In this document: in pieces, positions 4,224-39,316 of the stretch
Position numbering within the stretch: position 1 is the first letter of the stretch
Layout: each line of letters starts with the position of its first letter
The notes under the pieces: generated by a model
The model's input: the letters and a program-made list of their open reading frames with translations, nothing else
Databases searched by the model: none
What the model was told of the DNA's origin: nothing
Assembly: GCA_963843285.1 (NCBI GenBank)
Contig: CAWJJO010000012.1
Coordinates: forward strand, 140,399-204,398
Direction: 5' to 3'
Origin: an uncultured bacterium
GTDB taxonomy: Bacteria; Acidobacteriota; HRBIN11; JAKEFK01
DNA length: 64,000 bases
Translations under genes and position numbers: made by a program

Positions 4224-4266
4224 CTCGCAAATCCTATCACAAGTAAGTAAACTAGAGCCGCCGATG

Positions 4267-6654: not shown

Positions 6655-6715
6655 CGTCCACAGCGCCCTTCCAGTAAAGTCTTCCTGTGGCGTCTTCAGA
6701 CCGATGGCAGATCCT

Positions 6716-7975: not shown

Positions 7976-8099
7976 GGTTGTGCTTGTGTGATGTTTGCCT
8001 GTCGAAGGGAAAGCAGCAACGTCTGCTACCTACGGGTCGGTCTCGCATTTGACAAGAGAACAAAATTGTTGCCAGATTATATGTCCAAATTATACGAGG

Positions 8100-10228: not shown

Positions 10229-10242
10229 TTACCATCTGATCG

Positions 10243-10442: not shown

Positions 10443-10458
10443 GCACAAGATAGCCCGG

Positions 10459-12063: not shown

Positions 12064-12069
12064 GTGTGC

Positions 12070-22347: not shown

Positions 22348-24024
22348 TCATTTCTCCGGACCCAAGCGGTAAAGTTGCATCAGTCCATTGTTTGATCGGT
22401 AGATCAGTTTGTATTTCTCTCCAATCTGTTCGGAGATTGATTTCACACTGGTATCATCGTGAGACGTTTCCGGAAATTTCCAAACCAACACGTAATCGAT
22501 CTTTTCAGATGTCCTCTTTTCAAACGATTCAAGCTGAACACGCGGCGGAACCTCTTCGATTCCGCCAAGAAACCTGTAGGGATTTAGCTCCTCACGAAAT
22601 TGGACCGGAAAATAATTACGGTTTCCTTCGTAATTATCAAATACGACAACGCGCCTGTAAGCCGCAATGTAACCGGATGTATGCCGAAACACCTTCACTC
22701 TTGTGGACATCTTCCCGGCGACAGATACATTTGCATTAGGAGAAAAGCATAGTGGCAGTAGAGTTGTATTTGGTTCAATCAGATCCTTTCCCGAAAGAAA
22801 CTCCTGTATGGGTTCCTGGAGTGCCCGGTACGCGGCAAAGTGAGAAAGAAGAAAAAAAAGACTCACCAAAACTGCGATTGCTCGTATTCCATGGATGAAC
22901 CGTGCGGAGTATGTCTGGCTGCCGAACCAGAGAATGAGGGTCAGGAATAAGAATAATGCCATACGATCGTTGACAAAACCGCCTTCAGTTGTACGTCCAG
23001 GAAGATAAAAGTAAAGAAGGAGATAAAACAAAGAGAGAAGCAGAAGGCCGTCCCACCGATTCCAGTTTCGGTGTAAAAGTTTAAACAGAATATTGTTGAT
23101 TAGAATCGAAGTAAAGAGGAAAACTACACACAGTGAAAGCCAGATTTCTCGCTCCGTAAAAGAAACGAGTTGTTCCAGATGCCAGAGATTGTTCCACAGT
23201 ACGCCGACCGATTGCTTGCCCAATACCCTTTTCTCTGCAGACCAGTAGAACGCGCCAGCCAACAGAAGAGCAGGTACTAGACTAAAGAGCGGTAGTAAGA
23301 AGCGGAAGACCATTGGTTTTCCAATCACCACCCCATTCCAATTGCGATCCTTTGCCTGTGATAAGAGCTCGAGCCAGGTAAACCATGTCCCGAGAAAAAG
23401 GATCGTCAGGCATGCCAGAAGAAGAGAAAAGAGGTGGGAGAAGTAGAGGGCGACTGCCAGCGCAGCAAACACAGCTGCCCGTTTCACTCCGAAATTTTTG
23501 TGGTGCTTCATCCAGTAGGCAAGTAGGACGAAGTACAACACTATCGAATAGCAGAAATTGTAAAAGCCTTTATGCAGCAGGTAATTGTAAAGAAAAGGAA
23601 AGACAAGAATGGACAGAGGACGCGACTCCGGACGAATCTGTCCAATAGCGAATCGGACGGAGACCGGAAGCATTAGAAGATAGATTGAAAGGACGATTTT
23701 TTCGGCAGTGAGCGGAGATATCACATACAAGAGCCCGGCAAGAAAACAATGAGTGATCCAATTTGGCACAGGTCGCTCATTGATTCGGTAGTACTTTTGG
23801 AAAATTGAAGTACGCGGCTCGTGATACTCCCGAATAATAGCGGCATTTCCAACATGAGAAGGTCCATCTTGAGATGGAAAATATCGGACGCCCCAGATGG
23901 GAAGCACATGAAGAACTAGCAGGAAGAAAAAGAGTAATCGCTCGCGGTCTTTCCACCAGAAAATGCTTGTAGAGGACCTACTGAATATATCCAAGAGAGC
24001 GAAGCTGCCGTTCCAACTCTTCAT
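22348..24024 (-). CDS. Polytopic membrane protein of unknown function (possible GT-C-like or polymerase)
   Basis: 558 aa. YFPSQDGPSHVGNAAIIREY follows the first TM segment. About 11 TM segments plus a soluble tail of about 150 aa. The annotated start overlaps the upstream gene by 47 nt, so the true start is uncertain. Confidence 0.35.
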   Translation of the reverse strand: MKSWNGSFALLDIFSRSSTSIFWWKDRERLLFFFLLVLHVLPIWGVRYFPSQDGPSHVGNAAIIREYHEPRTSIFQKYYRINERPVPNWITHCFLAGLLYVISPLTAEKIVLSIYLLMLPVSVRFAIGQIRPESRPLSILVFPFLYNYLLHKGFYNFCYSIVLYFVLLAYWMKHHKNFGVKRAAVFAALAVALYFSHLFSLLLACLTILFLGTWFTWLELLSQAKDRNWNGVVIGKPMVFRFLLPLFSLVPALLLAGAFYWSAEKRVLGKQSVGVLWNNLWHLEQLVSFTEREIWLSLCVVFLFTSILINNILFKLLHRNWNRWDGLLLLSLFYLLLYFYLPGRTTEGGFVNDRMALFLFLTLILWFGSQTYSARFIHGIRAIAVLVSLFFLLSHFAAYRALQEPIQEFLSGKDLIEPNTTLLPLCFSPNANVSVAGKMSTRVKVFRHTSGYIAAYRRVVVFDNYEGNRNYFPVQFREELNPYRFLGGIEEVPPRVQLESFEKRTSEKIDYVLVWKFPETSHDDTSVKSISEQIGEKYKLIYRSNNGLMQLYRLGPEK

Positions 24025-25999
24025 TGATTTTGCTTGTGTCCATTTGAGTGCGAGGCAAAGCGCGATATTTTTGTCTTTTCTGATTGAGCCAGTCCAACAG
24101 GATCCTTTCGTGCGGTTCTATTTTATCTTTGTTTCCCCCATGCAGAAGATTCTTTTGTTCCTTGGGATCGTTCGAGAGATCATAGAGTTCCTTTTCAAAG
24201 GATTCCAGATTCGCAATGAACTTTAAGTTTCCTGATTGTACAGCATAAAGGTCATGCCGGAGGCTGGCAAAGAGACTTCTATTCGAATTCGCCCGGCCCG
24301 CCTGAAGTGAGGACAATAATTCCTGTCCATCACTTTCGATAGGAACCTTCAGGCCGACGTAGTTCAAGATGGTCGGCATGATATCCAGGATACTGGCTGG
24401 TGAATCTGATATCTTGCCCTTCTGGAACTCGGCACTGGCAGGGAATTTGATAATGAACGGCACGCGCAATACTTCATCATAAAGCGTTCTTCTATGCCCC
24501 TTTCCGCCATGTTCTAAAAATTCGTCTCCGTGATCTGCCGTAAAGATGATGAGAGAGTTATCAAAAACGTTTAACTCCTGAAGTGTTGCGATCAATTTAC
24601 CAATATAGAAGTCGGTGAAAGCGATTTCTCCATCGTACAACGCCATGATGTGAGAGAGGTCTCTCCACTTCATGCCTTTCTTAACTTCTGGATTCAGATT
24701 GAAATTGCGTCCGTCGATTGTCCCCTGATATGTCCGATCGAACATCTGGTCGTAAGGAGGAGGGGGAATATAGTCGTAATGAACGTCCCAGTAATGAAGA
24801 AAAAGAAAAAACCTTCTTTCGTGATTCTCCCTTAGCCATTTCCGGATTGAGGAAGTTAATGCAGGAGAGGTGATTCCGCCATGTGCGAGGTGATTGGATT
24901 CTGAGATTTTATTTGGATCAAAGTTGATGGTGTAGTCATCGTAATGATCGAAGCCCTGATTATACCCGTAATAGGAATAGAGAAACGGAGCAGACACAAA
25001 ACCAGCAGTGACGTATCCATTTTGCTGGAGAATTTCCGCCAGAGTGATTCTTTCAGGATCAAGCCGATCATGAATGCCGTAGACACCGAGCGCCTCGGGC
25101 GTTAATGATGTCAACATAGAAAGATGAGCCGGCAGAGTCCAGGAGGTTACGCTGAGGGCGCGAGTGAACAAAGTACCTTCGCGTGCGAGCAAATCTACGT
25201 TCGGACTGGTTTTTCTTCGATATCCATAGCAGCTGAGATGATCGGCCCTAAGACTGTCCATGGAAATGAGGATAATATTCGGGTCATTCGCGACATTACT
25301 TGCCTGAATTGATGGAGCAAATATTGCAGGTTGTTTCTCATGACGGCTTTTCAAATTCGGAATCCAAATGCCCTGCAAGCATGTCGCCAGGACGAACAAC
25401 GTTGCCCCGAGCAAAGCACTTTTTCGCCTCAGTTGTGCTGGAAAGCTCTCAAGAAGCCGGGAGCTTATAGCGAAAAAGGATCCCGCCAGCAGCACAGAAG
25501 CCAGGATCAGACCACAGCATGCAAAGACCTGAAACAGAACAGAAATAGTTAGAAGATGTTTTTGGAAGACAGAAACAAGCAAATTCAGGAAACAGGCAAT
25601 ACCAAAGGCAACACTGAGATGGATCAGAAGCAGATTCCTTTTCTCATCATTTATCCTTGGGGAGCGGAAGAGAAGCCAGAGAGCACAACCCTGGAAAGCA
25701 CCGATCGAAATGCCAATCAGAGAATAAATCGAGGCAAGTTTTATCAGCAAAGGAAATTTGTTGAGCAAGCCAGGACCTAAATATTCGTTCAGAACCAGTG
25801 CAAGGGAAGTTGTTTTTCCAATGTGAAGGATCCATTCAAGAAGGGCAAAGACTTTAAAACGATAAATCAGGTCTATTGGACGAAAGATTTGATCTTTGTA
25901 AATGAATAAAACAAGGAACCATTCGCTGGTTGCCTGGAAAATTGCAAAAACAACGCAACTCACGAAGGCAAATTTCATATGATTCTTGAAGTGGATCAT
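23978..25999 (-). CDS. Multi-TM N-terminal domain fused to a sulfatase-fold (alkaline phosphatase superfamily) domain with a Thr nucleophile motif. Predicted phospho-transferase or hydrolase rather than sulfatase.
   Basis: 673 aa. About 6 TM segments lie in the first roughly 230 aa. Then come IILISMDSLRADHL (metal-ligand Asp), TSWTLPAHLSMLTS (T-x-P-x-H at the C/S-x-P-x-R position), FTADHGDEFLEHG and LYDLSNDPKEQKNLL. The C-terminus is LRSLGYIQ. Confidence 0.7.
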   Translation of the reverse strand: MIHFKNHMKFAFVSCVVFAIFQATSEWFLVLFIYKDQIFRPIDLIYRFKVFALLEWILHIGKTTSLALVLNEYLGPGLLNKFPLLIKLASIYSLIGISIGAFQGCALWLLFRSPRINDEKRNLLLIHLSVAFGIACFLNLLVSVFQKHLLTISVLFQVFACCGLILASVLLAGSFFAISSRLLESFPAQLRRKSALLGATLFVLATCLQGIWIPNLKSRHEKQPAIFAPSIQASNVANDPNIILISMDSLRADHLSCYGYRRKTSPNVDLLAREGTLFTRALSVTSWTLPAHLSMLTSLTPEALGVYGIHDRLDPERITLAEILQQNGYVTAGFVSAPFLYSYYGYNQGFDHYDDYTINFDPNKISESNHLAHGGITSPALTSSIRKWLRENHERRFFLFLHYWDVHYDYIPPPPYDQMFDRTYQGTIDGRNFNLNPEVKKGMKWRDLSHIMALYDGEIAFTDFYIGKLIATLQELNVFDNSLIIFTADHGDEFLEHGGKGHRRTLYDEVLRVPFIIKFPASAEFQKGKISDSPASILDIMPTILNYVGLKVPIESDGQELLSSLQAGRANSNRSLFASLRHDLYAVQSGNLKFIANLESFEKELYDLSNDPKEQKNLLHGGNKDKIEPHERILLDWLNQKRQKYRALPRTQMDTSKINEELERQLRSLGYIQ

Positions 26000-26139
26000 C
26001 TTTCGAGTGAATTTTCTGAGCTAATTCTACAGTACCATTCTCTATAAAAAAGCAGCGATAGTATAAGCCGATTATCTCTTTGTTCGCGATGTCGGGTCCA
26101 TGCAGTTAAACTGAAACGGAAGTGAGAGGCTGAACGCAA

Positions 26140-26711
26140 AGAGTATCATTCGCGCCGGCAAGATCATAAAGAACAGAGTCAGAGCCAGTCAAACTCCCGC
26201 GGAGCCCTCCAAAACAACCCACTCTCCACTGCGAGCCAGCCAATCTCTCATTAAAGAGAGGAGGCCAACCGTTTGAAATGATGCTGATATAAGGCTCAAG
26301 GCAATATATCCTGTTACCACCAGAACGGCAGGCCAGACCGATCCTGGAAGAAAGAGAACCAGCCAGAAAAACGGAGCCGTGACATTGGGTTTCACCAGCG
26401 CGATCAAAAAAATGCCGGCTGCGAGAAAATGATTCGACCATGTTGGCGGATCTTTTTTAGTTAAGATGAGTGCAACTGAAATCAGTAGAGGAAGCAGATG
26501 GAGAATCAATTGCCCATTTCCGATTGCTACACGGGCTGCATTCATAGATAAGAGCATCAATGTCGCAAAGATCCGTTCCAGCGGAGTTCGTGCTTTGCTT
26601 TCCCGCATGATCAGACGGCAGAGCCAGATCATCACGACAATTGTGGTGAGTGCCCAGAGATAACGCGCTGAAGACAAAGATAGCCAGCCGACAAAGGGGC
26701 CAGAAGATCAG
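26140..26711 (-). pseudogene. Decayed DUF2029/GT87-like paralogue: N-terminally truncated, one frameshift, internal deletion of about 260 bp
   Basis: ORF 26189-26677 (SSARYLWAL...LVKPNVTAPFFW...MRDWLARSGEWVVL) aligns by eye with residues of 18144-19349. Upstream homology continues to about 26711 with an extra C that shifts the frame (ctggcccctttgtcgg versus ctggcccttcgtcgg). Downstream, EWVVLEG joins directly to the LALTLFFMILPARMI tail region. Confidence 0.75.
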
Positions 26712-26724
26712 GTCGCAGCGAAGT

Positions 26725-28557
26725 ATGATAGGGTTTCAATTGATCAGCATGCAATTTTACACTACTCATAGAATTCTGTTTTTCCACGTATTTCTTGCAT
26801 TTGCCGCAACAGTCGCGCTTTTCTCCTGCCGCCGCCACGATGGTCCGGCTCTGGTTCGGCTCACCGCACCGCCCGTGCCATCAAAAGCCACCTGGGAGCG
26901 CATCAAAATCGGCAGAACTACACGCACAGGATTCATCGTCCCGGCATCATCATCTAGGCTCGAATTCAAGGTGAAGGTGCCTTATGGCAAGCCCCATCTG
27001 TTCTTTTCGGCAGGTCTTCAATCTGATGAAAAGAGTAAGCCGCATCCTGTCAATTTTCGTATCAGTGTCGTACACAAAGATTCTGTCACCGATATCTTCC
27101 AAATCTTAAACAAGCATGCCGGCTGGAAGGATGTCTCGATTGATTTGAGCAGGTTTGCGGGAAAAGAGGTGCTTCTTCAGCTATATACAGCCGCTGAAGC
27201 GGGAAACAATCAGACTGCTGTGTGGGGTTCTCCGGAAATTTACGACATTTCGGCAGCGCACAAGAGCCCCAATATTGTGCTCATATCGGTAGACACGCTA
27301 CGGCCTGACCGACTCGGAGCCTACGGATACGGGCTTCCCACAAGTCCAGCCATCGATTCCCTGGCCCGCAGGTCTCTTGTTTTCAAGAACGCGTTTTGCA
27401 CTTTTCCTCAGACTCTTCCTTCACATGCAACAGTCATGACAGGGCTTTATGCTGGTAAGCATAAAGTTGCTAAACCAACGCTATTCTTGCCCCGTTACGG
27501 AAGGATTCCACAGGACCTGGTGACAATCGCCGAACTTGCGTCCTCACGTGATTACTTTACAGTCGGGATTACCGATGGCGGTTACGTTTCAAGTATCTAT
27601 GGTTTTGATGATGGTTTTGCAGAATACAGCGGAAATATGAATGTCGTTAACCGCGATCCTACAGCAAACATCGATTACGCAATCCAGTGGCTGAAAAAAA
27701 ACCACAGTCGCCCGTTCTTTTTGTTCCTGCATACCTATCGCGTCCACGAACCGTATGAGGCTTCCATCAATGCATTCCGGCGGTTATTTCCAAACTATCC
27801 GCTCAAGGAAGAGAGCGCAGTTGTCGAAACGCCGCAGCGCTGGCTGAATCAACTTAGACGCGGAGTACTGGTCGCATCTGCGGAGGACAAGCAGTTCGTA
27901 AACCATTGTTATGATGCGGGCATTCTCGAATTCGACTGGAAATTCGGAAATTTTTTGACGGAACTGCAGCGGCTAAATCTTCAACAAAATACGGTGGTTC
28001 TCCTGTTCGGAGATCATGGTGAACAGCTATTCGATCGTGGCAACGGTTTAGGCCACGGAACATCGCTTCATCGCGAAGAAATTGCAGTACCTTTCATTTT
28101 GTACCTTCCGGGCAAAAAGCATGAACAAAAAAATGAGCTGGTTTCGCTTGTCGATGTTTATCCGACTCTTGCTCAGATCATGGGGGTGAATCCAATTCCT
28201 GCTACCGACGGCATCAGCGTTCTGGACCCACAATCGCAGAAGAAAAGAGCCGCAAGATGTATTTATTATGAAGTGATCAGAGAGGACCAGGCAAGCTGGG
28301 GGACGCAAACACATGAATTCAAGCTCGTGTTCAAGTTCAACACAAAAGAAGAATCCCTGTACGATTTAAGAAACGATCGTCAAGAGACCCGCGACGTCCG
28401 TTTTGAATTCGGGCGTCCCATGCAGGTTCTGAAAACTTCATTGAGCAGTTACATGAAAGAATCGATGAAACCGTTGCAGAAGAGTTCGAAGCATCAACAG
28501 CTGGAGGAAACTGAGGAGCTACGGGAACAACTTCGCTCGCTGGGTTATGTCAACTAA
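26725..28557 (+). CDS. Secreted or lipoprotein sulfatase-fold protein with a Thr nucleophile motif (no multi-TM domain)
   Basis: The signal-like N-terminus ILFFHVFLAFAATVALFSC is a weak lipobox. IVLISVDTLRPDRLGAYG, FPQTLPSHATVMTGLY (T-x-P-x-H), FGDHGEQLFDRG. The C-terminus is LRSLGYVN. The ORF-track start 26650 lies inside the pseudogene remnant, so ATG 26725 or 26749 is more plausible. Confidence 0.7.
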   Translation: MIGFQLISMQFYTTHRILFFHVFLAFAATVALFSCRRHDGPALVRLTAPPVPSKATWERIKIGRTTRTGFIVPASSSRLEFKVKVPYGKPHLFFSAGLQSDEKSKPHPVNFRISVVHKDSVTDIFQILNKHAGWKDVSIDLSRFAGKEVLLQLYTAAEAGNNQTAVWGSPEIYDISAAHKSPNIVLISVDTLRPDRLGAYGYGLPTSPAIDSLARRSLVFKNAFCTFPQTLPSHATVMTGLYAGKHKVAKPTLFLPRYGRIPQDLVTIAELASSRDYFTVGITDGGYVSSIYGFDDGFAEYSGNMNVVNRDPTANIDYAIQWLKKNHSRPFFLFLHTYRVHEPYEASINAFRRLFPNYPLKEESAVVETPQRWLNQLRRGVLVASAEDKQFVNHCYDAGILEFDWKFGNFLTELQRLNLQQNTVVLLFGDHGEQLFDRGNGLGHGTSLHREEIAVPFILYLPGKKHEQKNELVSLVDVYPTLAQIMGVNPIPATDGISVLDPQSQKKRAARCIYYEVIREDQASWGTQTHEFKLVFKFNTKEESLYDLRNDRQETRDVRFEFGRPMQVLKTSLSSYMKESMKPLQKSSKHQQLEETEELREQLRSLGYVN

Positions 28558-28561
28558 AACT

Positions 28562-28600
28562 TTTCGATCCTGCCTCGACTGCGTGCAGCGAGAATCGAAA
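28562..28600 (+). terminator. Nested hairpin just after the stop of 26725-28557
   Basis: TTTCGAT..CTCGaCTGC-gt-GCAGCGAG..ATCGAAA is a two-tier inverted repeat. No downstream T-run, so this is only a candidate. Confidence 0.3.
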
Positions 28601-28657
28601 GTAGTACAGTGGCCCCATGATTGCTATCACCAGTATTGAAAGGAGAAAAAAGGAACG

Positions 28658-30340
28658 GTGACCATCGTGAAGGCAGTCAAACGAAACGCGCTGGCAAGTA
28701 ATTTTGCGGAAGGGGCACCTAGCTTCCGGATCTTTCTAATCGCGTTGATGATCCAGGTGCCTCTCATGATTCTCGCAGGACTCAAGAACCCGGATCAGAT
28801 GAACCCTGATTCGATATCTTATCTGCGGGTGGCCCAGTATTATCTGCAGGGCAAGTATCATCTGGCTGTCAACGGCTACTGGGGACCGTTATTCAGTTGG
28901 CTCACTGTGCCAGTACTCCCGCTTGTGAATGATCCTGTGCTGGCGTTCCGCATTGTGGATTGGATGAGCGCGGTGATCTATCTATTCGGTGCGATCAGAG
29001 TACTTCGGGCACTGGGGTTTGATCAGGTTACTGTTGCTGTGGGTGGAATCCTGATTGCTTTGTTTTCTATTCAGTGGTCCATATTCTTCATCGGACCTGA
29101 CCTGCTGATGAGCGGATTGCTACTGGTTGCGTTGAGTTACACACTTGAATCCGATGGCCGTCCTTTTGTCGCGGGTCTTTTCTTTGGAACTGCCTGTCTG
29201 ACAAAGGCGGTCGCTTTACCGATAGCACTTTTATCTCTGCTCGGTATCGCCATCATCCGTGTCCTGGCGGGGATAGCATCATTTCGAACGGCTATATATA
29301 TGGTAGGACGCAGCGCGGTGAGTATGATCTTGCTGGTATTACCCTGGGTGATTGTACTTTCCTTCCATTATGGCCAACCAACATTTTCAACAAGCGCAAT
29401 ACTCAATCATGGTCTGGTTGGTCCTCATAACCCGAATTGGCTGCATCCCTCATCCGCAGTCTACAATGTGCCTGAAGCGGGACGGATCACAACCTGGGAA
29501 GATCCAACGGTGCTCCGCAATCATCCACTGTACAGGCCCTGGTCGCCGTTGAGCAGCTGGGCCAATTTTAAACATCAGATAAACGTAATTCTTTTTAATG
29601 CCCACGAGCAGTTTGATTATTTCAGAGAATTCGATGGATCCGGAGTCGGGATCATTGCAGCGGTCCTGGGATTCCTGTTTTTTTTCAGGCCATGGGTGCA
29701 GAGTTTTCAGACACATCCGTGGCGCTTCGGAGCAATCGCTATCGCTGCGATCACTTCCATCTATTTACCCGTGTACGGGATTGCACCCCGTTATTATCTG
29801 GCGTGTTATCCGTTTTTGTTTTCAGCTACTTTAGGACTGCTAACGGTTTTGGCAATGAGGATTCAATCTCGGTTCGGAACAAAAGAATCAGATCGGCCGG
29901 CACAAATCCGCAATCTTGTTCTCATTTTGACGATCATACTGTTTATTTATGGCTTGATTGGGCCGCTCAAGCGATCTCTTAGTAGTGAAGGATATGGCGA
30001 GGCCCCCTATTCAGTCGCAAGACAAATGGCCGGTTTATTGCCCTTTCATGGTCCTGTCGCTGCCGTAGGCGACGGGCGACGAGTCGCTCTCTATATTGCG
30101 TTTCTCACCGAACAACCCTATTACGGAGTTAAGGTGGTAGCGAACGTGAGCGTTGCCGATCTGCAAAAGATCGGTGCCGCATTTGTGGTCGTCAAGCGGG
30201 GTCTGCCCGTGGACCAGATGTTGTCTAAGGATTCTGCCGTCCGGTTGGTGTCGCCACAGACTCAAGATGATAAAGCATGGCCCGAACGGCTTTACTGTCT
30301 TAGACCGTTGCATCCCGACCCTTTGCAAAAAAAACCATGA
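28658..30340 (+). CDS. Polytopic membrane protein, GT-C-like
   Basis: 560 aa with a GTG start. The first loop is NPDSISYLRVAQYYLQGKYHLAVNGYWGPLFSWL (D..Y..A...G....YWxPL pattern). About 12 TM segments plus a C-terminal soluble region. Confidence 0.45.
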   Translation: MTIVKAVKRNALASNFAEGAPSFRIFLIALMIQVPLMILAGLKNPDQMNPDSISYLRVAQYYLQGKYHLAVNGYWGPLFSWLTVPVLPLVNDPVLAFRIVDWMSAVIYLFGAIRVLRALGFDQVTVAVGGILIALFSIQWSIFFIGPDLLMSGLLLVALSYTLESDGRPFVAGLFFGTACLTKAVALPIALLSLLGIAIIRVLAGIASFRTAIYMVGRSAVSMILLVLPWVIVLSFHYGQPTFSTSAILNHGLVGPHNPNWLHPSSAVYNVPEAGRITTWEDPTVLRNHPLYRPWSPLSSWANFKHQINVILFNAHEQFDYFREFDGSGVGIIAAVLGFLFFFRPWVQSFQTHPWRFGAIAIAAITSIYLPVYGIAPRYYLACYPFLFSATLGLLTVLAMRIQSRFGTKESDRPAQIRNLVLILTIILFIYGLIGPLKRSLSSEGYGEAPYSVARQMAGLLPFHGPVAAVGDGRRVALYIAFLTEQPYYGVKVVANVSVADLQKIGAAFVVVKRGLPVDQMLSKDSAVRLVSPQTQDDKAWPERLYCLRPLHPDPLQKKP

Positions 30341-30423
30341 GCTTGCTGCCTTCGATGGCGTACCGAACAGGAAATCCGCCGCGGACCTCGCGTCTGATTT
30401 ACAGTAGTGTACAATAATGTGGC

Positions 30424-30870
30424 ATGAAAGTGGCCATTATCGGGGCTGGGGCAGCAGGATTGTCCGCTGGCTATGATCTTGCCAGACGCGGTGTCGCCGT
30501 GGAGCTTTTCGAGTGCGACAAGGCGCTGGGAGGATTGGCCGGCTCCTTCCTGCTCGACGGGGGCTATGTCGAGAAATTCTACCATTTCATTTGTCTCAAT
30601 GATTTTACGTATCAACAAACACTCCGGGATTTAGGTCTGCACCACCTCCTCCGCTGGAGATTGACCGATATGGGTCAGTATTACAATGGACGAAATTACT
30701 CGCTCGGCAGGCCCTACGATGATCGCACGATCAGCAACAGTCTGGGGTTAGGCAAATCCGCCGCCTCACTCATTCTTTCGGATGAAGGAGCCATGATTGA
30801 TCCGGTGTCCGCGAGAAAATGCTATTTCCGTCATAAACCGGAGATCTTCCATCCAATTATTGAGACGTAA
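30424..30870 (+). pseudogene. Internally deleted paralogue of the 5331-6638 FAD oxidoreductase. The Rossmann N-terminus is fused in frame to the C-terminal tail.
   Basis: Residues 1-96 (MKVAIIGAGAAGLSAGYDL...GGYVEKFYHFICLNDFTY...GRPY) parallel 5331-6638 residues 1-96. The sequence then jumps to DDRTISNSLGLGKSAAS, which in the full-length gene lies about 310 residues later. Confidence 0.75.
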
Positions 30871-32546
30871 AAGTGAACAACTCATACTTTGGACCGCGGT
30901 GTTCTTCCACCAGTTTCATATTTTCTCGAAGCCACTCTTCTTCGGGGGCGGGCTCCTTCAAGTAATGAATCTTCAGAAGAACAATGCGCCGTCGGCCATG
31001 AACCAACCGCTGTATATCCTGTGGGACTTTTCGTTGGTTAAGCTGACCGACCCAGGAGGTAACAGGAATGGATTTCGTCAAGTATCGGGAGAGGCAAATA
31101 ACACCGGAAGGAATCGAATGCACGATAATCAAATCTCCAGGTTGAGCATTTGAAGAAATTTGAGCAGCCAACTCTCGAAAGTTGTTCCGAGCGCGCTGAG
31201 GGGCGTACCACATCGCCCAGGTTCCCATGATGTAACCTGCAATTAACAGTACAAGACACAGCTTCCGCGAAGCCGGCTTCAACCGGGCAATCCAATATCC
31301 AATCAACAACTGTGCCACAGGCAAACCGCTTAACGCATAACGGGACACCCAAGCCGCTCTCGTATGAAAAATCAGATCCAGGACTGACGGGCCAAGACAC
31401 GCCGCCAGCAGCCAGATCCATGGCCATAGCCGTCCGCCAAGCAAAGTTGCCCGGGGCAACTGAATTGCACCGGTACGAAATTTTCTTCGCAAATGTATTC
31501 TTCGGTGATTCACAAGAAAGATCGCGGATACAACAGGAAAAGCTACGAAAACATCGATGGCAATTTGGCCCTGCCACAACACAGAAGGAGAGAGTAAACG
31601 CCACCAGAGAAAAAAGGGAGCGATCAGAGTTGCCTCCCAGCGGCACGGGATGTCGTAGCCAATCTTTTGTAACCCTCCATCTGCCAAGACTCTCTGGAAC
31701 GTACGCATACCAGGGGGTGATAAGAATGACCATACAAAGAAACAACAACAACCATTTTGTGCGACTTAAATGTCCGGGATCGAACAGAACCCAAAAAGCA
31801 AATGCCAGAAAAACAAAAATAAAGTAGTAATGCGTAAGAAGACCGGATGTGCCCGTTAATACGAGCAGAGGTCCATTGATTTTGTGAAATCCATTTTTCC
31901 GTAGATTTAGAATCAACCAAACCATTGCGAGGACCAGAAACCATACGAGTGAGTACATGCGGCCTTCCACTGAGTATTGAAGCGCTACCGGAGAAAGAGA
32001 AAAGAACAGGCAGGAAAAGGCTGCGGTTCGACGTCCCCCTAACTGTCTTCCCAGGGACCAAAGCACGGGAAAGCAAGCAAGGGCAAAGAACAGGGAAAAT
32101 AAACGAAGCGCTATATCGGTAGTTCCCAACCATCTGGTCCAGTAATGAAGGAGCATGTAGTAGAGAGGTGGGTTCGTGTCCGAGATCAGGACTCCACGTA
32201 AAACGCGGGACAACGACGCTGGTGGATCTTCATGCTCGGAGTAGCGACGGAAATACGATGGGTCGACTGGCTGGGGCGGTTCCTGGAAATCACCGAATGA
32301 GGGATTCGCCTCGGAAGCAGGGTGCTCTAAACTGTGCCCCGTAGCCCCTGCAAGGGAAAAAACCTCATCAACCCACAATCCCTCACGCGTCAAAAGCACC
32401 GCGTCCAGCAATCCTGCAATTACAAGGCAAAACACAATGACAACGTTTCTGCGATAAAGATCCCCTTTCATTGCTTTGCTTAAAATATCAAAATCGTCAG
32501 CGAATAGGAAATTGTAGTTCTTCATGCTGAACTCATCCTGGAGCAT
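30857..32546 (-). pseudogene. GT-C (ArnT/PMT_2-like) membrane glycosyltransferase split by an apparent frameshift near 31640-31710
   Basis: ORF 31038-32546 is plausible for about 300 aa (WVDEVFSLAG, DTNPPLYYMLLHYW, YSVEGRMYSL) and then becomes Cys-rich nonsense. ORF 30857-31708, in another frame, carries the plausible continuation (TM segments, then FRELAAQISSNAQPGDLIIVHS). Confidence 0.6.
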
Positions 32547-32551
32547 TCTTT

Positions 32552-33961
32552 CTAGGCGTTCGGGTCTACGCGTTTAGGATGGGTGCAAATCAAGTAAATA
32601 TACTTTGCAAGTAAGAAACCAAAATACACGGAGGGCAACACAAAGAACGGCATGAACGGCTGGACGTACCTAACCTCACCAAAGAAAATCAATGTAATCA
32701 GCAAAATATTCAGCAGATAAACAACAGGAAAGATGGGAACTCTTTCGTCATCACTCCTGAACAAACGAATAAGATAGTATAAGAGCATACCGGCCATGAC
32801 CAGGGAAAAAGGGAGGCTCCTCTGCACCGGAAAAGCCTGCAACACCTTGTTCAAGAAAAACTTGGGAAGATCCTTTTTGTTTCGAGAATAGAATATGAAA
32901 ACCTTCCTGAACGGGGAGTAATCGGTATTCTTCAATTGGTTGTACAAATATACCCTATCCCCTGCTTTCGCAGTTCTCCACTCAGTATGCCTGCTTCCGT
33001 TTTTGAGAGAATCTTCGTTGTTCCCCTCAAAAAGAGCCGGCTTTGTTTGAGATGAAAGAAGGACAAACCGTCCGCTTTTCCAGCTCGCATAAACGCTCCA
33101 GGGCACAATGAGAGGAACCATTCCCAAACAGAAAATCGAGATCGGAAGCAATCGTCGGTGCGGTTTTCGAATCCGGAGCATCAGATGCAGGATTAAGAAG
33201 AAAGGAATGAAAATATTTAATCCTTTGATTAGAATCAGAACCGCCGAGACACCACCAAGAGCAAAAATCCTAAGAAGGCTCGGGTGCTTCTCCCAAAAAA
33301 TGAAAACCACAACCCACCAGGCCAATGCGAATGTACTGAGACTTTCCGCCAGGATCTTCACTGGCGGTGGGCAAAAGTAGTGCAGAAAGACAAAAGAAGA
33401 AACGATGCCGCTGGCAATTCCCCATTTTCCCCAATAATGACCGGCAATCCACGGCATCATGGTCGCAACCAGAGCCAGCAATATCACCTGGAAAATTTTT
33501 ACGACTCGAGGATGTACATCAAAGATCCTGTACACGAGTGCTAAGAAAAGCGGATAGCCTGGAGGTTTGTCAATCGTATAAGGCACGCGCTTGAGGAACG
33601 ATTCATAGTAAGTAACGGGTCTTCCATTCGGCGAATAACGATCGATATCGGAACGTTTCTTCGCTCTCTCATTAAACCGATAGGTCTCAAATGGCTCGAC
33701 TCCGCGATCCTGAAAACCATGACCGTAAAGAACATTGACGGCAAGAGTCTGGTAGGCCCAACCATCGCCTACGCCGAAGAATACCGTATCGTCGCTTAAG
33801 CCGGCTTTGTTTCTAATATATAAGTAAACAAACGCGGTGCACGATACCAGAAAATAGACCAAGACGAACCGGGCCTTCATGGGTTGCACCATTTTATACT
33901 GTGAGCGAATTCCCGATGTCAACAAGAACAGCTGCATCAGGCATCTTGCTTTCAACCGCAA
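32552..33961 (-). CDS. GT-C fold membrane glycosyltransferase (ArnT/PMT_2-like)
   Basis: GVGDGWAYQTLAVNVLYGHGF and DKPPGYPLFLALVY are hallmark first-loop patterns. About 11 TM segments. The probable start is M24 (33892) or M28 (33880) rather than 33961. Confidence 0.55.
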   Translation of the reverse strand: MRLKARCLMQLFLLTSGIRSQYKMVQPMKARFVLVYFLVSCTAFVYLYIRNKAGLSDDTVFFGVGDGWAYQTLAVNVLYGHGFQDRGVEPFETYRFNERAKKRSDIDRYSPNGRPVTYYESFLKRVPYTIDKPPGYPLFLALVYRIFDVHPRVVKIFQVILLALVATMMPWIAGHYWGKWGIASGIVSSFVFLHYFCPPPVKILAESLSTFALAWWVVVFIFWEKHPSLLRIFALGGVSAVLILIKGLNIFIPFFLILHLMLRIRKPHRRLLPISIFCLGMVPLIVPWSVYASWKSGRFVLLSSQTKPALFEGNNEDSLKNGSRHTEWRTAKAGDRVYLYNQLKNTDYSPFRKVFIFYSRNKKDLPKFFLNKVLQAFPVQRSLPFSLVMAGMLLYYLIRLFRSDDERVPIFPVVYLLNILLITLIFFGEVRYVQPFMPFFVLPSVYFGFLLAKYIYLICTHPKRVDPNA

Positions 33962-34056
33962 GCTGGTTCAATTGTTCTACCTCCCGCTCTACAAGTTACA
34001 ACTGAGACTATTTGGCTATTTGTGCGGAACTCATCCGGACTAGCCGGGCTGCCGGC

Positions 34057-35886
34057 TCAGTTGAAATAACCCAAACTCTTCAAACGCTCGATCTGGGCGG
34101 GAGACAAACCTTCAACCTCCCTGTGGACCTGATGTCCCAGCTGACGATTCAGAAAAGGCTCCAGCTGACGGCCGATTTCCGGTTCCTTGTTATAGAGATT
34201 CATCAGCTCATTTGGATCGGTGGAGAGATGATACAATTCATACGTTCTTTGAAGATCATCGTTGCGAATCAGCTTCCATTCATTCGTACGAACACAATGT
34301 TTGACAACCTGCCTGCGGAAGCAGTCCGTAACCATCACCCTGTGGGTTGAACTGAAACGCCCGCCGGCCAGACCTACCAGATCAACGGAATCTGGAGTCT
34401 GCTTCGATTCCAGCCCTGCAGCCGACATGATCGTCTGAAAAATATCCGTCAACGCCACCTGTTGAGTGATGATTGTTCCCGGTACAACTTTACCTGGATA
34501 CCGAACAATCAATGGTACGCGAATCACGGGATCATACACGCTTTTGTGCTCGTAGTAATGTCCGTGCTCCCCGAGATTCTCCCCATGGTCGGATGTAAAA
34601 ATCAACAAAGATTTGTCATAAATTCCTTTTTCTTTCAGAAATGAGACGATACGGCCGATTTGAGCATCAACAGTTTCGACTTCCATCCCATACAACTTTT
34701 TCTGGCGAGGCAAGTCTTCATGTTCTGCTCTCAACCTGCAGCACGAGTTTAGAATTCCTCCATAGGGAAAGTGAGGATCATAGTAGTGCAAAAAAAGAAA
34801 GAAAGGAGATTCGACGTTCTTTGCTAACCACTTGAGCGCGGAGTCCGTTGTCGGTCCGGCATCTCTGGACAAGTCCCTATTGAACAGTCCCAAATCTGAA
34901 ACAAATCTTCCACAGAAGCTTCCGTCGAAATAATCCATCCATGTGAAATTATCGTCATATCTCTGAAAACCTCGATCCAAACGAGAGTTGTAAATTTGCA
35001 ACGGCCATCCTGAGACAAAGCCTCCCGTCCGGTAACCGGCTCTTAGAAGATGATGAGTTACAGTGGAAATTTCGTCCGGAAGTACAAAACCGTTGATGAG
35101 AACACCATGGACCAATGGGGGAAGGCCGGTCAACATGCTCATATGAGAGGGGCCGGTTAGCGGCATAAAAGTAATGGCATTCTTGAAGAGTGCCCCTTCG
35201 GCTGCAATCCTGTCAATCACCGGGGTGCGTATATAAGGAGACCCATACGCACTGACATAATCAGAGCGCAGTGTATCCACACTGATCAAAATCACCTTGT
35301 CCGCAGAATCCGGTCGTTTCACACCCTGATGATAGGAATTGCTGACCCATGGAAGGAAAAGAACAATCAGGATCGGTCCGATGGTTGCAAAAATCGAAAT
35401 CCTCATGAGACGTCGAGGAGAGATTTTGACTATTACAGAACGATGAAACAGCCTGGCCATGATCATGCATCCAAGGTAAACCGGAGCCAGAATCACTAAT
35501 AGGAAAGCTTTCTGCACAATCATGGGAGATTGCTTCAGAGGAAATCGGTATCGCAGGACCCATATACAGATACCCAGTAAGGTAGTGGCAGCAACACCAA
35601 TGTGCGGCCATAGCAACTTGCGGGAAATAAAATCCTTTTTATCAAGCAATCCTGCCACTTTTAGTAAGCCATAATGAAGTACGGCCAGCAGTACGGCGCA
35701 AAGAAGGGAAAACGCGAGATTGCAGACTATAAAGAAGAATGCCTGCCCTGCAACCCACGGGGCATATTCCATCAGAACACGAGACGAGGATTCCCAGGAA
35801 GTACCCAGAGAAAAGCAAACCACCCAGGCTATCAGTACATTTGTAAACGAGGAAGAGGATCTCTTTTGGCTTAAACTCTCGTTCAT
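34057..35886 (-). CDS. Multi-TM plus sulfatase-fold protein with a Thr nucleophile motif (tandem paralogue A)
   Basis: 609 aa. About 5 TM segments in the first roughly 190 aa. VILISVDTLRSDYVSAYG, PLTGPSHMSMLTGLPPLVHGV (T-x-P-x-H...TG...HG), FTSDHGENLGEHG, LYHLSTDPNELMNL. The C-terminus is LKSLGYFN. Confidence 0.7.
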   Translation of the reverse strand: MNESLSQKRSSSSFTNVLIAWVVCFSLGTSWESSSRVLMEYAPWVAGQAFFFIVCNLAFSLLCAVLLAVLHYGLLKVAGLLDKKDFISRKLLWPHIGVAATTLLGICIWVLRYRFPLKQSPMIVQKAFLLVILAPVYLGCMIMARLFHRSVIVKISPRRLMRISIFATIGPILIVLFLPWVSNSYHQGVKRPDSADKVILISVDTLRSDYVSAYGSPYIRTPVIDRIAAEGALFKNAITFMPLTGPSHMSMLTGLPPLVHGVLINGFVLPDEISTVTHHLLRAGYRTGGFVSGWPLQIYNSRLDRGFQRYDDNFTWMDYFDGSFCGRFVSDLGLFNRDLSRDAGPTTDSALKWLAKNVESPFFLFLHYYDPHFPYGGILNSCCRLRAEHEDLPRQKKLYGMEVETVDAQIGRIVSFLKEKGIYDKSLLIFTSDHGENLGEHGHYYEHKSVYDPVIRVPLIVRYPGKVVPGTIITQQVALTDIFQTIMSAAGLESKQTPDSVDLVGLAGGRFSSTHRVMVTDCFRRQVVKHCVRTNEWKLIRNDDLQRTYELYHLSTDPNELMNLYNKEPEIGRQLEPFLNRQLGHQVHREVEGLSPAQIERLKSLGYFN

Positions 35887-35934
35887 CTCGATCTTTGCAC
35901 TGTGGAACTCATCCGGACGAGCCGGGTTGCCGGC

Positions 35935-37761
35935 TCAATTGACGTAACCTAACGCTTTTAGATTTTCGATCTGGGCCGGAGATAAATCATCAACCTCCCT
36001 GCTGAGCTGAAGTCCCAGTTGACGGTTCAAGAAAGGCTCCAGTTGGCGAGCCATTCCGATTTCCCTAGAATAGATATTGATCAGCTCACTTGGATCTGAG
36101 GAAAGATGATACAGTTCATACGTTTTTTGATTTTTTTCGGAGCGGATCAATTTCCATTCATTTGTCCGAACGGAATGCTTGACTCCTTTTCGATAACTGT
36201 TTGAGACAAGCACTCGATGGGGTGAGTCGAAACGCGCGTTTGCCAATCCTACCAGGTCGATCGAGTTTGGAGCTTGTTTGGATTCCACTTTTGTCGCCTC
36301 CAGGATCGTCCGGAAGATGTCAGTAAGCGCCACTTGCTGAGTAATGACGGTTCCCGGCACAATCTTTCCTGGATACCGAACAATCAGAGGAACTCGAATT
36401 ACGGGCTCATAAAGACTTGTGTGCCCGTAGAATTGTCCGTGTTCCCCGAGGCTCTCACCATGGTCGGATGTAAAAATCAATAAGCAGTTATCATACACAC
36501 CCTTCTCCTTCAGAAATGTAATCATTCGTCCTATTTGAGCATCTACTGTTTCCACTTCGATCCCATACAACTTCTTTTGGTGAGGCAAATCCTCGGGTGC
36601 GGCTGTGTCTGTATGATGCGATTTTACATGTCCTCCATAAGGAAAGTGAGGATCGTAGTAATGCAAGAAAAGAAAAAAAGGGGAATCAACATTCTTTTTT
36701 AGCCACTTGAGAGCAGAATCAGTCGCAGAGGGAGCATCTCTCGCCAGATCCCTGGTAAGAAAGGGAAGATCCGCAACAAATCTTCCACAGTAGCTTCCAT
36801 CAAAAAAATCAATCCAGCAGAAATTATCATCATATCTCTGGAAACCTCGATCCAAACGACAGTAATCCTGAAGCGGATTTCCGGAAACGAAGCCGCCGGT
36901 TCGGAAACCAGCCTTTCGAAGATACGTTGTTACCGTTGGAATGCCTTTGGGAAGACTATACCCGTTTATATGAACCCCATGAGTTAATGGAGAGAGGCCC
37001 GTCAGCATGCTCATATGGGACGGTGCGGTCTCAGGAATCAGAGAGACAGCTTGTTTGAAGAGTGCTCCTTCCGCGGCGATTTGGTCAATTACCGGTGTAC
37101 GAATGTACGGGGAACCATAGGCGCTTATAAAATCGCAACGCAGTGTATCCACGCTGATCAAAACCACGCGGTCAACTGAATTTTCCGATCGTTTCAGCGC
37201 CGGATGACCGGAATTGCGAACCCATTGAGCGACAAACACAATTCCGATTGGACCGAGGATCGCGAAAATCGAGATCTTAACGAGAAGTGACAAACCAACT
37301 CGGGAAAGGACATGGCGATGAAGTAATCTGGCAACCATCATGCATCCCATGTAAACCAGTATCAGAATCAAGACTAGGAGGCCACCCTGGACAATGACGG
37401 GAGTTTGCCTCAGAGGAAATCGGTAGCGAACAATCCATAAAGACATGCCCAGCAGAGTGGCGGCAGCCAATCCAATCTCAGGCCACAAGAACTTTCGAGA
37501 AATGGAATGCTCTTTATCCATCCATCCTGCAACTATGATCAACCCCTGATGAAGAACTGCCAAAAGGACGCTGCAAACAACTGCAACCACGAGATTGTTG
37601 ACCATGAAGGAAATGGTTTGTCCAACACCCCAAGAAGTATGTTCCGCCAGTATGCGAAATGCCGATTCCCAGGAAGTACCTGCGGAAAAGCAAACCACCC
37701 ACGCTATCAGTACACTTTGAAACCGATCAGGGGACCTCTTTTGGCTTGAACTTTCGTTCAT
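35935..37761 (-). CDS. Multi-TM plus sulfatase-fold protein with a Thr nucleophile motif (tandem paralogue B)
   Basis: 608 aa, collinear with 34057-35886 and roughly two-thirds identical by eye. PETAPSHMSMLTGLSPLTHGV. The C-terminus is LKALGYVN. Confidence 0.7.
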   Translation of the reverse strand: MNESSSQKRSPDRFQSVLIAWVVCFSAGTSWESAFRILAEHTSWGVGQTISFMVNNLVVAVVCSVLLAVLHQGLIIVAGWMDKEHSISRKFLWPEIGLAAATLLGMSLWIVRYRFPLRQTPVIVQGGLLVLILILVYMGCMMVARLLHRHVLSRVGLSLLVKISIFAILGPIGIVFVAQWVRNSGHPALKRSENSVDRVVLISVDTLRCDFISAYGSPYIRTPVIDQIAAEGALFKQAVSLIPETAPSHMSMLTGLSPLTHGVHINGYSLPKGIPTVTTYLRKAGFRTGGFVSGNPLQDYCRLDRGFQRYDDNFCWIDFFDGSYCGRFVADLPFLTRDLARDAPSATDSALKWLKKNVDSPFFLFLHYYDPHFPYGGHVKSHHTDTAAPEDLPHQKKLYGIEVETVDAQIGRMITFLKEKGVYDNCLLIFTSDHGESLGEHGQFYGHTSLYEPVIRVPLIVRYPGKIVPGTVITQQVALTDIFRTILEATKVESKQAPNSIDLVGLANARFDSPHRVLVSNSYRKGVKHSVRTNEWKLIRSEKNQKTYELYHLSSDPSELINIYSREIGMARQLEPFLNRQLGLQLSREVDDLSPAQIENLKALGYVN

Positions 37762-37769
37762 ATTCTGTG

Positions 37770-39288
37770 TTAGCTGTTCAGTATTTGATGCTCAGGTCGG
37801 CCTTTCATCTCGGCGGGAATCGGTACATTGAGAAGCGTCAGGAAGGTTGGAGCAAGATTCAGCAGTGGTACTTCTCCAATATGTCCTGCGCTGCGGATGT
37901 CCGGCCCCATTGCTGCAATAAAACCGAAATCGGAATGTCCGCTGTCCCGAATCGGATCCGGGTTTTGCTTCAGTTGAGCGCGAGGATGCTCCAACGTTTT
38001 CATCAGGTGGCTATGCGGTTTCCACTTCAAAAAAAGATCCGGAAGAATCTCAGGCGCCTGGACGCCAAATAACTGGTCACAAGTGAATAGCGAATGTACC
38101 GGACTCTGGCCAGTCGTGGGATCTAATAGTTTAGAAAACTCGCGTTGCAATTCTTCTATTAAGCCATCATATTCCTCTCGTGTAACGGTTCCCATGGGTT
38201 CACGTCCCTTCAGATTGATTCTTAGCCATCCCTGGTAAAAGGAAGGGGGTGCAAAAACGCTTGCTTTGGTCCAGTCCGTGCCTGCTGAGAATTGTTGCGA
38301 GATGATCCGTTCTCTTGTTTCGCGTGGAAAATGACGGCTGATCCCAATGCGCAACGATTCGGGCAGAATGCGACGCAGAATCGACATCGGATTTAAAGAG
38401 GGAGCACTTGAAGCGGGAAAAGGCTGATAGCCGAGTTCTCTGCAAAAGGATTCTACAAGTCCCGAAGTCGGGTAATGATTCTCCATACCTGCCGTGCTGA
38501 TGATGAATACCGTTGTGTCCGGGGGAAATTGCGCAAGTAATTCGTCGATTTCCTGATCGATCGCCTGGTAAATACTGAGAAGCGCCTTCATCATTTCTGC
38601 GTCTGGAACCTTCGGCGGCTTGCCTGATTCGGGTACATATTTCCAAAACTGATGACCACCGGTGTGCGATTCCCCAAAAGAAGCAACAATGAGATCAAAC
38701 GCGTCGGGTTTCAGCAGGTGTCGAAGTAAAATTCCCTTTTCTCACTCGCTGCATTAACTTACGGTACATCACGACTTCTTGATCGAAATCGTAGTACCAG
38801 TTGATTTCGGTCTTGATTTGAGGTCCGAAGACCCGGCGCACTTCCGAGAGGATTCCTTCCGGTTGCGCGGTCGGACCGAACGCCGGCTCATGAGTTGCCC
38901 AGTTGGAAATTTGAATACCGTCAAGCCCGGGAATCGGATACATTTCCTGCGCATCAACGATGGCTACTCTCTTGTTTTTGCCTCGAAGATGAAACCAGAA
39001 CGGGTTTGCTCTGGCATCTTTCGACGTTTTTAGTTCCAGTTGATATGTTCCCGGTTTCAATTGCCGGAAGTCATAGTAACCAGTCTGGTCGCGAGAAAGG
39101 CCACTCAGCATTGACACCCAGATGCCGTGTTCACTGATCATGTCCGATCCTGCCGTTGTTCCCCATGATCCCTTTTGCATGAAGCGGGAAAGCGTCGGCA
39201 AATGGCCTTCACCAGACCATTTCTGGATCAGACGCGGGTCTCCTGCATCAATTGCCAGGATCACTAAAGGCGTATTTTTTCGGCCCAT
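37770..39288 (-). pseudogene. Type I phosphodiesterase / nucleotide pyrophosphatase family (alkaline phosphatase superfamily) gene split by a 1-nt frameshift at an A4G3 run
   Basis: ORF 38695-39357 (VILAIDAGDPRLIQKWSGEGHLPTLSRF...) ends after MQRVRKGNFTS. Removing one A from the run at 38737-38740 (minus-strand AGAAAAGGG) gives ...RVRKGILLRHLLKPDAFDLIVASFGESHTGGHQFWKY.... This runs into ORF 37770-38594 (MMKALLSIYQAIDQEIDELL...IISTAGM...). The probable start is the ATG at 39288. Confidence 0.65.
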
Positions 39289-39316
39289 GCAATTACATCC
39301 CTTACTCTTTGCGGAC

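Follow-up and report, generated by a model that had tools for sequence, protein, structure and literature searches.

Four arylsulfatase-like proteins from an Acidobacteriota envelope-glycan locus carry a putative threonine-type phosphoryl-transfer site

The stretch of DNA analyzed here (the window) comprises 64 kb of contig CAWJJO010000012.1 from an uncultured bacterium of the Acidobacteriota and encodes four paralogous proteins of the alkaline phosphatase (AP) superfamily, hereafter copies A to D. We present solid in silico evidence that these proteins carry a putative Thr-type phosphoryl-transfer site on an arylsulfatase scaffold and are not sulfatases, while a role in decorating a glycan, inferred from their genomic context, is plausible. 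The reading as a whole is that the four copies belong to a clade built on the S1 sulfatase scaffold, in which a Thr nucleophile and a His-rich metal site would serve phosphoryl transfer, and that the membrane-anchored copies would decorate the glycan made by the locus; we give this complete picture about an even chance of being correct. An initial annotation made without database searches had listed four sulfatase-fold open reading frames (ORFs) in this region, and all four were recovered as follows:

23978..25999 (-): copy A, ORF of 673 amino acids (aa); multi-pass membrane region at residues 1-240 (25280-25999), catalytic domain at residues 241-673
26650..28557 (+): copy B, ORF of 635 aa; catalytic domain at residues 208-635
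34057..35886 (-): copy C, ORF of 609 aa; five-helix membrane domain at residues 1-196 (35299-35886), catalytic domain at residues 197-609
35935..37761 (-): copy D, ORF of 608 aa; membrane domain at residues 1-197 (37171-37761)

Copies C and D form a recent tandem pair with 67% identity, and A and B are deep, old paralogues that share 26-32% identity with C and D.

A putative Thr-centered active site on an arylsulfatase scaffold

All four copies match the sulfatase family PF00884 (E 1e-45 to 1e-49; 1.1e-48 for copy A and 6.5e-46 for copy B) together with the C-terminal subdomain PF16347 (SGSH_C; 2.4e-12 for copy A) above the Pfam cut-offs. The type I phosphodiesterase family PF01663 is likewise matched by all four, with 49-67 bits against a cut-off of 23 bits (E 8.9e-13 for copy A). 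When a profile of the family was compared with individual enzymes using hhalign, the sulfatase AslA scored highest (99.7% probability, E 3.5e-27), followed by EptA (96.5%, E 7.5e-10) and OpgB (95.2%, E 2.5e-8). An AlphaFold2 model of copy C (predicted local distance difference test (pLDDT) score 89.4, predicted TM-score (pTM) 0.88) retrieved S1 sulfatases as all of its top 50 Foldseek matches in the PDB, at a target-normalized TM-score of about 0.7. Pfam, hhalign and Foldseek therefore agree with the initial annotation that the scaffold is arylsulfatase-like and not LtaS-like. The active-site motifs of the four proteins are located as follows, with residues numbered as in each protein:

25106..25138 (-): copy A, nucleophile motif TLPAHLSMLTS (T288)
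27412..27444 (+): copy B, nucleophile motif TLPSHATVMTG (T255)
35125..35157 (-): copy C, nucleophile motif TGPSHMSMLTG (T244)
36997-37029 (-): copy D, nucleophile motif TAPSHMSMLTG
24494..24535 (-): copy A, DHGDEFLEHGGKGH, the metal-ligand Asp-His pair with a His at +12; aligns to EptA SDHGESLGENGIYLH
27727..27747 (+): copy B, LHTYRVH, with Arg at the position of D370 (copy C numbering)
34771..34791 (-): copy C, LHYYDPH, containing H367, D370 and H372; aligns with EptA LH…H-G-P
34546..34590 (-): copy C, DHGENLGEHGHYYEH, containing D433, H434, G435 and E436 … H447, equivalent to MCR-1 D465-H466-G-E468…H478
36421-36465 (-): copy D, DHGESLGEHGQFYGH, the equivalent motif

As previously noted from the sequence, T-x-P-x-H thus stands in place of the sulfatase signature C/S-x-P-x-R, and we read T-x-P-x-H-x4-T(G/S) in all four proteins. 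The two flanking motifs reported along with it, IS-x-D-(S/T)-LR-x-D upstream (ISMDSLRAD in A, ISVDTLRPD in B, ISVDTLRSD in C and ISVDTLRCD in D) and DHG(E/D) downstream (DHGD in A, DHGE in B, C and D), are also present in each of them. In alignments with solved sulfatases and with E. coli AslA, the Thr takes the place of the Cys/Ser nucleophile and the His that of the Arg in C/S-x-P-x-R. In the copy C model, helix 244-253 begins with T244, and the N-terminus of a helix is where the nucleophile of this superfamily canonically sits. Alignment to PF00884, PF01663 and solved structures had been proposed as a check on the nucleophile, and it is the Thr that occupies this position.

These residues are conserved far beyond the window and are no product of chance. 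We aligned 124 sequences to a hidden Markov model of the family; counts are given over ungapped sequences and in copy C numbering, which is used from here on. D204, H367, H372 and D433-H434-G435 are each found in 122 of 122 members, T244 in 121 of 122 (with Ser in the remaining one), P246, H248 and H447 in 121 of 122 each, and E436 in 120 of 122. The D370 column holds 114 Asp, seven Glu and a single Arg among 122 members, the Arg being that of copy B. Overall, the Thr, the His, LH-x-x-D-x-H, DHGE, the His 12-13 residues further on and the LGY motif discussed below are each at least 98% conserved, among sequences that share as little as 26-30% identity.

The strongest sequence and fold match is to the S1 formylglycine-dependent sulfatases and phosphonate monoester hydrolases (AslA, 9fo1, 7p24, 2vqr), with which the family has the overall scaffold and SGSH_C in common, and of whose active site it keeps the first metal-ligand Asp, the Asp-His/Asn pair and HisB (H372). 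In contrast to these enzymes, the nucleophile is Thr and not Cys/Ser, the Arg of the motif is replaced by His, and the second metal-binding Asp has become Thr (D-T instead of D-D). The sulfate-binding LysA/HisA pair of the G-K-x-x-H signature is lost: K-W-H of AslA aligns to S/G, G/A and F/Y/W in the family, and 'gkwhle' of 7p24 aligns to 'sgwplq'. At the LysB position, give or take one alignment column, stands the invariant H447, and the family has an extra invariant His (H367) as well as the Asp D370. Whereas S1 sulfatases depend on formylglycine, the Thr enzymes of this family would neither need nor allow a maturase. Conversion of Thr to formylglycine has never been shown and would yield a ketone instead, which is why the half of the PF00884 seed sequences that carry Thr cannot count as sulfatases in SulfAtlas (PMC5066984). 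That Thr-type members of PF00884 are not sulfatases is thus a principle already known, while a T-x-P-x-H clade on an arylsulfatase-type scaffold is absent from the discussion in that paper. With a Thr nucleophile, a His for the Arg of the FGE motif and no GKxxH pair, the four copies are very probably not formylglycine sulfatases, as the initial annotation had proposed.

The residues that set the family apart from sulfatases find their counterparts in Thr-type phosphoryl-transfer enzymes. With both hhalign and hmmalign, D204 is matched to Glu in the G-E-T-S-R of EptA, T244 to the nucleophile Thr of that enzyme, and L-H367-x-x-D-x-H372 to EptA L-H-x-x-x-x-H-G-P; moreover, S-D433-H434-G-E436-x-L-G-E-H-G-x-x-x-H447 aligns to EptA S-D-H-G-E-S-L-G-E-N-G-I-Y-L-H. 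In MCR-1, Glu246, Thr285, Asp465 and His466 constitute the Zn1 set, His395 and His478 are putative Zn2 or phosphate contacts, and Glu468 orients His478 (PMC5216409); H372, H447 and E436 of the family share columns with the MCR-1/EptA positions His395, His478 and Glu468. The likeness to EptA/LptA/MCR-1 therefore extends, residue for residue, over the Thr nucleophile, the acidic residue, Asp and His that act as metal ligands, LH…H and DHGE…(+12)His, and in both cases a five-helix N-terminal membrane domain precedes a catalytic domain that is periplasmic or, in our copies, predicted to be so. The overall similarity is nonetheless weak (15-38 bits for the EptA/MCR models of NCBIfam, versus cut-offs of 500-1250), the catalytic domain of the family has an arylsulfatase-type C-terminal subdomain, and the Thr is embedded in T-x-P-x-H and not in the G-T-x-T-A of EptA.

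Two further groups resemble the family in part. LtaS and OpgB share with it a multi-pass membrane region followed by an outward-facing AP-superfamily domain, a Thr nucleophile and, presumably, a lipid-headgroup donor, a likeness of architecture and presumed logic only, and they carry T-x-N-x-E around the nucleophile, compared with T-x-P-x-H here (PMC5066984). The NCBIfam model of LtaS gave about 20 bits versus its cut-off of 970 bits. NPP enzymes (PF01663) are characterized by the motifs D-(G/T)-L-R-x-D and T-x-P-x-H-x4-TG…HG, and the family has both of them in common with NPP (D-T-L-R-x-D, T-x-P-x-H-x4-TG…HG). The PF01663 match spans profile positions 1 to about 220 of 342, corresponding to the N-terminal two-thirds of the catalytic domain, and the C-terminal third of that profile is unmatched in the four copies. 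In contrast to NPP, the C-terminal half and the subdomain of the family are sulfatase-like, with PF00884 scoring much higher than PF01663, and the distal His follows DHG by 12-13 residues, as in EptA, whereas in NPP it comes about 100 residues after DHG. At the second metal site, NPP enzymes combine D-x-x-x-H with this distal His, and the family has H-x-x-D-x-H. Consistent with the NPP-like motifs, the N-terminal segment also shows weak NCBIfam matches to the Thr-type enzymes PafA and PhnA. With PF01663 above threshold and a one-to-one map onto the catalytic set of EptA/MCR-1, the earlier assignment of these residues to Thr-type phosphoryl transfer stands, and phosphoryl-transfer chemistry through the Thr is likely.

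A widespread and generically annotated clade

Far from being peculiar to four genes, as the initial annotation presented them, these features mark a clade that numbers at least hundreds of loci. With copy C as the query, more than 4,000 relatives were recovered at E<=1e-10; of the 120 best, nearly all combine the Thr/His motif with LGY some 340 residues further on. In species-representative genomes (one genome per species) we counted at least 597 loci, most of them in metagenome-assembled genomes (MAGs) of Acidobacteriota, Planctomycetota, Gemmatimonadota, Eisenbacteria and Aminicenantes. The closest relative among the matches listed comes from an Acidobacteriota MAG and is 60% identical. Databases name these relatives only 'sulfatase-like hydrolase/transferase' or 'arylsulfatase A-like enzyme'. 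The clade thus exists, is widespread and generically annotated, and is experimentally uncharacterized. Part of the DNA of the window is also present in metagenomes from soil and freshwater sediment, none of which contains more than 18% of the sampled words. P0036, a relative of 919 aa, has two T-x-P-x-H catalytic domains within one chain, with the motifs at residues 77 and 529.

Membrane domain and predicted topology

Copies A, C and D begin with hydrophobic multi-helix N-termini, for which a Kyte-Doolittle scan gave three to five segments (five in A) and the AlphaFold2 model of copy C five long helices (residues 14-39, 46-81, 95-114, 122-150 and 157-183), in keeping with the multiple transmembrane helices noted before. 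The N-terminal regions of the copies have no Pfam match. Among 116 motif-bearing members of the family, 47 have a long N-terminal region, which in 45 of the 47 contains 3-7 hydrophobic segments, and the other 69 have a signal or anchor only. The predicted cytoplasmic loops of copy C contain 12 Lys and Arg residues and the periplasmic loops four, a distribution that places the N-terminus inside and the catalytic domain, by prediction, outside the cytoplasm. A Glu at the periplasmic end of the first transmembrane helix is conserved in 37 of the 47 multi-pass members, including A, C and D, which suggests that the membrane domain may be more than an anchor. In copy C this residue is E32 (about 35791-35793, (-)), the sole strongly conserved polar residue of the membrane domain.

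In copy B, the same scan found one hydrophobic segment, resembling a signal or lipobox sequence (…ATVALFSC), and no multi-pass N-terminus. Its ORF opens with a GTG well 5' of the likely signal/lipobox sequence MQFYTTHRILFFHVFLAFAATVALFSC, and translation probably begins at an internal Met, either M26 or M33. Within its N-terminal region (residues 1-207, 26650-27270 (+)), a stretch of about 150 aa (residues ~60-200) has no Pfam match, and residues 1-200 have no sequence match in the PDB.

LGY marks the end of the catalytic domain

All four proteins terminate in L(R/K)(S/A)LGY followed by two residues and a stop codon, as first read from the sequence:

23981-24004 (-): copy A, LRSLGYIQ, then stop codon
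28531-28554 (+): copy B, LRSLGYVN, then stop codon
34060..34083 (-): copy C, LKSLGYFN, then stop codon
35938-35961 (-): copy D, LKALGYVN, then stop codon

LGY is present in 119 of the 119 members that are ungapped at this position. In many relatives fused to tetratricopeptide (TPR) repeats it lies within the protein, with the repeats following it. Two roles had been suggested for the tail; the sequence pattern identifies it as the domain-end motif of the catalytic domain, while the internal location in TPR-fused relatives speaks against a recognition tag. A function as a C-terminal sorting tag was ruled out on this ground and because the motif also ends a PF01663-type enzyme. In addition, an L-x-x-LGY tail ends eight ORFs at related loci that lack an exact T-x-P-x-H-x4-T[GS], namely one in L061 (9397 (+)) and seven in L025, L030, L051, L058, L059 and L080. 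One of the eight was confirmed as the PF01663-type phosphodiesterase-like enzyme, and the tail may be common to several periplasmic AP-superfamily enzymes of these phyla.

Genomic association of the anchored copies with glycan-assembly genes

ORF scans show that the whole window is one envelope-glycan island. Its glycosyltransferases (GTs) include at least six of family GT2, one GT4 and at least nine GT-C-like membrane proteins (GT87, PMT_2, Mannosyl_trans4), and two GDSL/AlgX-like esterases are encoded as well. GT-C enzymes act at the periplasmic face of the membrane with polyprenyl-phosphate-linked sugars, and this compartment coincides with the one predicted for the four catalytic domains. 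Of the four close multi-pass relatives examined (P0008, P0011, P0012 and P0029), each lies within 10 kb of a GT87, PMT or PMT_2 gene, and a tandem paralogue is present in two. On the contig of P0012 (L088), positions 2814-12732 hold a distant multi-pass relative, then a second paralogue and then a PMT-like GT-C gene, with NTP_transferase+GT2, HAD-hydrolase and CofD-like genes nearby; this gene set could make an activated phospho-compound.

Proposed mechanism and competing explanations

In the mechanism that we propose, a divalent metal bound by D204, T244, D433 and H434 would activate Thr244 for attack on a phosphodiester, giving rise to a covalent phospho-Thr intermediate. H367, D370, H372 and H447, the latter oriented by E436, could hold a second metal or directly bind the phosphoryl and leaving groups, and the intermediate would be resolved either by a hydroxyl of the acceptor or glycan (transfer) or by water (hydrolysis). 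The catalytic domains are expected to face the periplasm, with A, C and D held by the five-helix membrane domain and B by its signal peptide or a lipid anchor. The membrane domain of A, C and D would present a lipid donor, and the anchored copies would take a phospho-substituent, for example phosphoethanolamine or phosphoglycerol, from a membrane phospholipid and attach it to the glycan at the periplasmic face, acting as independently arisen functional analogues of EptA, OpgB and LtaS. That they are transferases decorating the glycan of the locus is a tentative proposal drawn from the genomic context, and we rate it somewhat below even. In its most far-reaching form, which we regard as doubtful, the T-x-P-x-H/LGY clade would constitute, beside LtaS/OpgB and EptA, a third class of membrane-anchored enzymes that transfer phospho-substituents, with an evolutionary origin of its own. 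It would be defined by the arylsulfatase scaffold and its own five-helix, lipid-engaging domain with a conserved intramembrane Glu, and would be responsible for phosphate-linked decoration of a periplasmic, GT-C-built envelope glycan in Acidobacteriota and neighboring phyla, with the soluble and TPR-fused branches having diverged to become scavenging phosphodiesterases.

A number of results weigh against the decoration of a glycan by lipid-fed transferases. Homology of the membrane domain to that of EptA or OpgB went undetected in two approaches: a profile of the 47 long N-terminal regions gave hhalign probabilities of 0.1% and 0.5% against the membrane domains of EptA and OpgB, respectively, and a model of the isolated membrane domain (pLDDT 79) had no significant neighbor in the PDB (best Foldseek E 0.9, EptA absent from the matches). 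The N-termini can therefore not be called 'LtaS/EptA-like', as they initially were, other than by analogy of architecture, and it is on this analogy that the idea of a lipid donor rests. Copy B lacks the membrane domain altogether and carries Arg at the D370 position. Our literature search found no characterized member of the T-x-P-x-H clade and brought up only the SulfAtlas statement on Thr seed sequences and the Halobacterium sulfation study discussed below, and the sequencing runs found to contain DNA of the window were DNA metagenomes with no RNA runs among them. Furthermore, a phmmer search with 26 window proteins showed that GT-C genes of the window type are almost absent near 80 more distant loci. 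This is a weak negative given the low sensitivity of single-sequence searches for GT-C proteins, but it means that the GT-C association cannot be generalized. At 23 of these 80 loci, a gene for a TonB-dependent-receptor-like outer-membrane protein is adjacent, which favors hydrolysis (scavenging) for at least part of the clade; two or more paralogues are found at 24 of the 80. The genomic context behind the glycan-decorating transferase of the initial annotation is shared by the close membrane-anchored subclade and not by the wider family. Probably the clade is functionally split, with a membrane-anchored branch associated with glycan assembly and soluble or TPR-containing branches associated with uptake.

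These same observations bear on the possibility that the proteins are extracytoplasmic phosphodiesterases or phosphomonoesterases, in which water resolves the phospho-Thr, and which serve organophosphate scavenging or glycan trimming. The active-site evidence for such hydrolases is identical to that for transferases, and the TonB-dependent-receptor neighbors, the 69 members with a signal or anchor only, the TPR repeats of many members, the lack of a membrane domain in copy B and the PF01663 phosphodiesterase-type gene that adjoins copy D all fit them. However, a five-helix domain with a conserved intramembrane Glu, as found in three of the four copies, would be needless for a simple hydrolase, and the close relatives of the three anchored copies sit with GT-C genes and not with uptake systems. 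We consider hydrolysis unlikely as the explanation for the four copies. Chemistry on sulfate, that is, adding or removing glycan sulfate without formylglycine, is suggested by analogy with Halobacterium salinarum, where the sulfatase-fold proteins VNG1056C and VNG1057C are required for N-glycan sulfation (PMC11980604). As in the window, these are AP-superfamily sulfatase-like proteins whose genes lie in a cluster for glycan assembly. One of the two is bound to the membrane, the requirement is a genetic one, and the S1-sulfatase-like scaffold of our copies would suit such a role. Yet the chemistry there is sulfation, VNG1056C has a single predicted transmembrane helix and VNG1057C is cytosolic, and catalytic residues are not reported in that paper. 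In the family, moreover, the Lys/His pair that binds sulfate in S1 enzymes is absent, with LysB changed to His, the conserved residues match phosphoryl-transfer enzymes, and the scan of window ORFs revealed no sulfate-activation genes. Sulfate chemistry would thus appear quite improbable.

The proteins might also lack catalytic activity and act as sensors or scaffolds of envelope assembly, a role that has been discussed for YejM/PbgA. Weak NCBIfam matches to YejM exist and the TPR fusions of relatives suggest protein-protein interactions, but conservation of at least 98% at about a dozen putative catalytic positions across the divergent family alignment is a pattern typical of active enzymes, and we view pseudoenzymes as very improbable. 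Genuine sulfatases, as the Pfam name suggests and as the best Pfam, PDB and Foldseek matches would have it, are hardly credible: the proteins lack the Cys/Ser nucleophile, the maturation-motif Arg and LysA/HisA, their Thr cannot give formylglycine (PMC5066984), none of the NCBIfam sulfatase models (arylsulfatase, choline-sulfatase, PehA) came near its cut-off (the best reached 166 versus 481 bits), and no match to FGE or anSME was found among the scanned ORFs of at least 180 aa in the 64-kb window.

If the phosphoryl-transfer reading is true, the consequences would reach well beyond this locus, as hundreds to thousands of genes from soil and sediment phyla (Acidobacteriota, Planctomycetota, Gemmatimonadota and others) are labeled 'sulfatase' or 'arylsulfatase A-like'. 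Such labels would inflate estimates of sulfated-glycan degradation and hide phosphorus-cycling or envelope-modifying activity. The family would also offer a natural S1 sulfatase scaffold with a Thr + His site of the EptA/NPP type, useful for studies of specificity switches in the AP superfamily, and a concrete candidate for the phosphate-linked decoration of a GT-C-built glycan in largely uncultured bacteria.

Other features of the island

Besides the glycosyltransferases and esterases, the window contains the following features:

2769-4223: Wzx-like flippase
5331 and 8777: two amine-oxidase-type flavoproteins
13320, 47400, 48920, 57748 and others: five GMC oxidoreductases
42048-43916: DUF6798/Wzy-like protein
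16385, 22348, 32552, 45297, 52521 and 62007: several large multi-pass membrane proteins without Pfam match
37770..39357 (-): fifth AP-superfamily gene, of the PF01663 type, adjoining copy D; its N-terminal ORF matches PF01663 with E 1.4e-06

Three-frame translation shows one frameshift interrupting this fifth gene (37770-39357), with frame 0 closing at '…MQRVRKGNFTS…*' and frame +1 running on with '…LLKPDAFDLIVASFGESHTGGHQFW…'. The split reflects either a pseudogene or a homopolymer assembly error. A second frameshift is suggested in the PMT_2-type GT-C gene at 30857-32546 (-), which consists of two overlapping ORFs (31038-32546 and 30857-31708). Between the divergent copies A and B, an ORF of 162 aa (26189-26677 (-)) is similar to the central part of the GT87 protein encoded at 19524-20783 ('RES…LER I…LLLSMN…GNGQL') and looks like the remnant of a duplicated GT87 gene.

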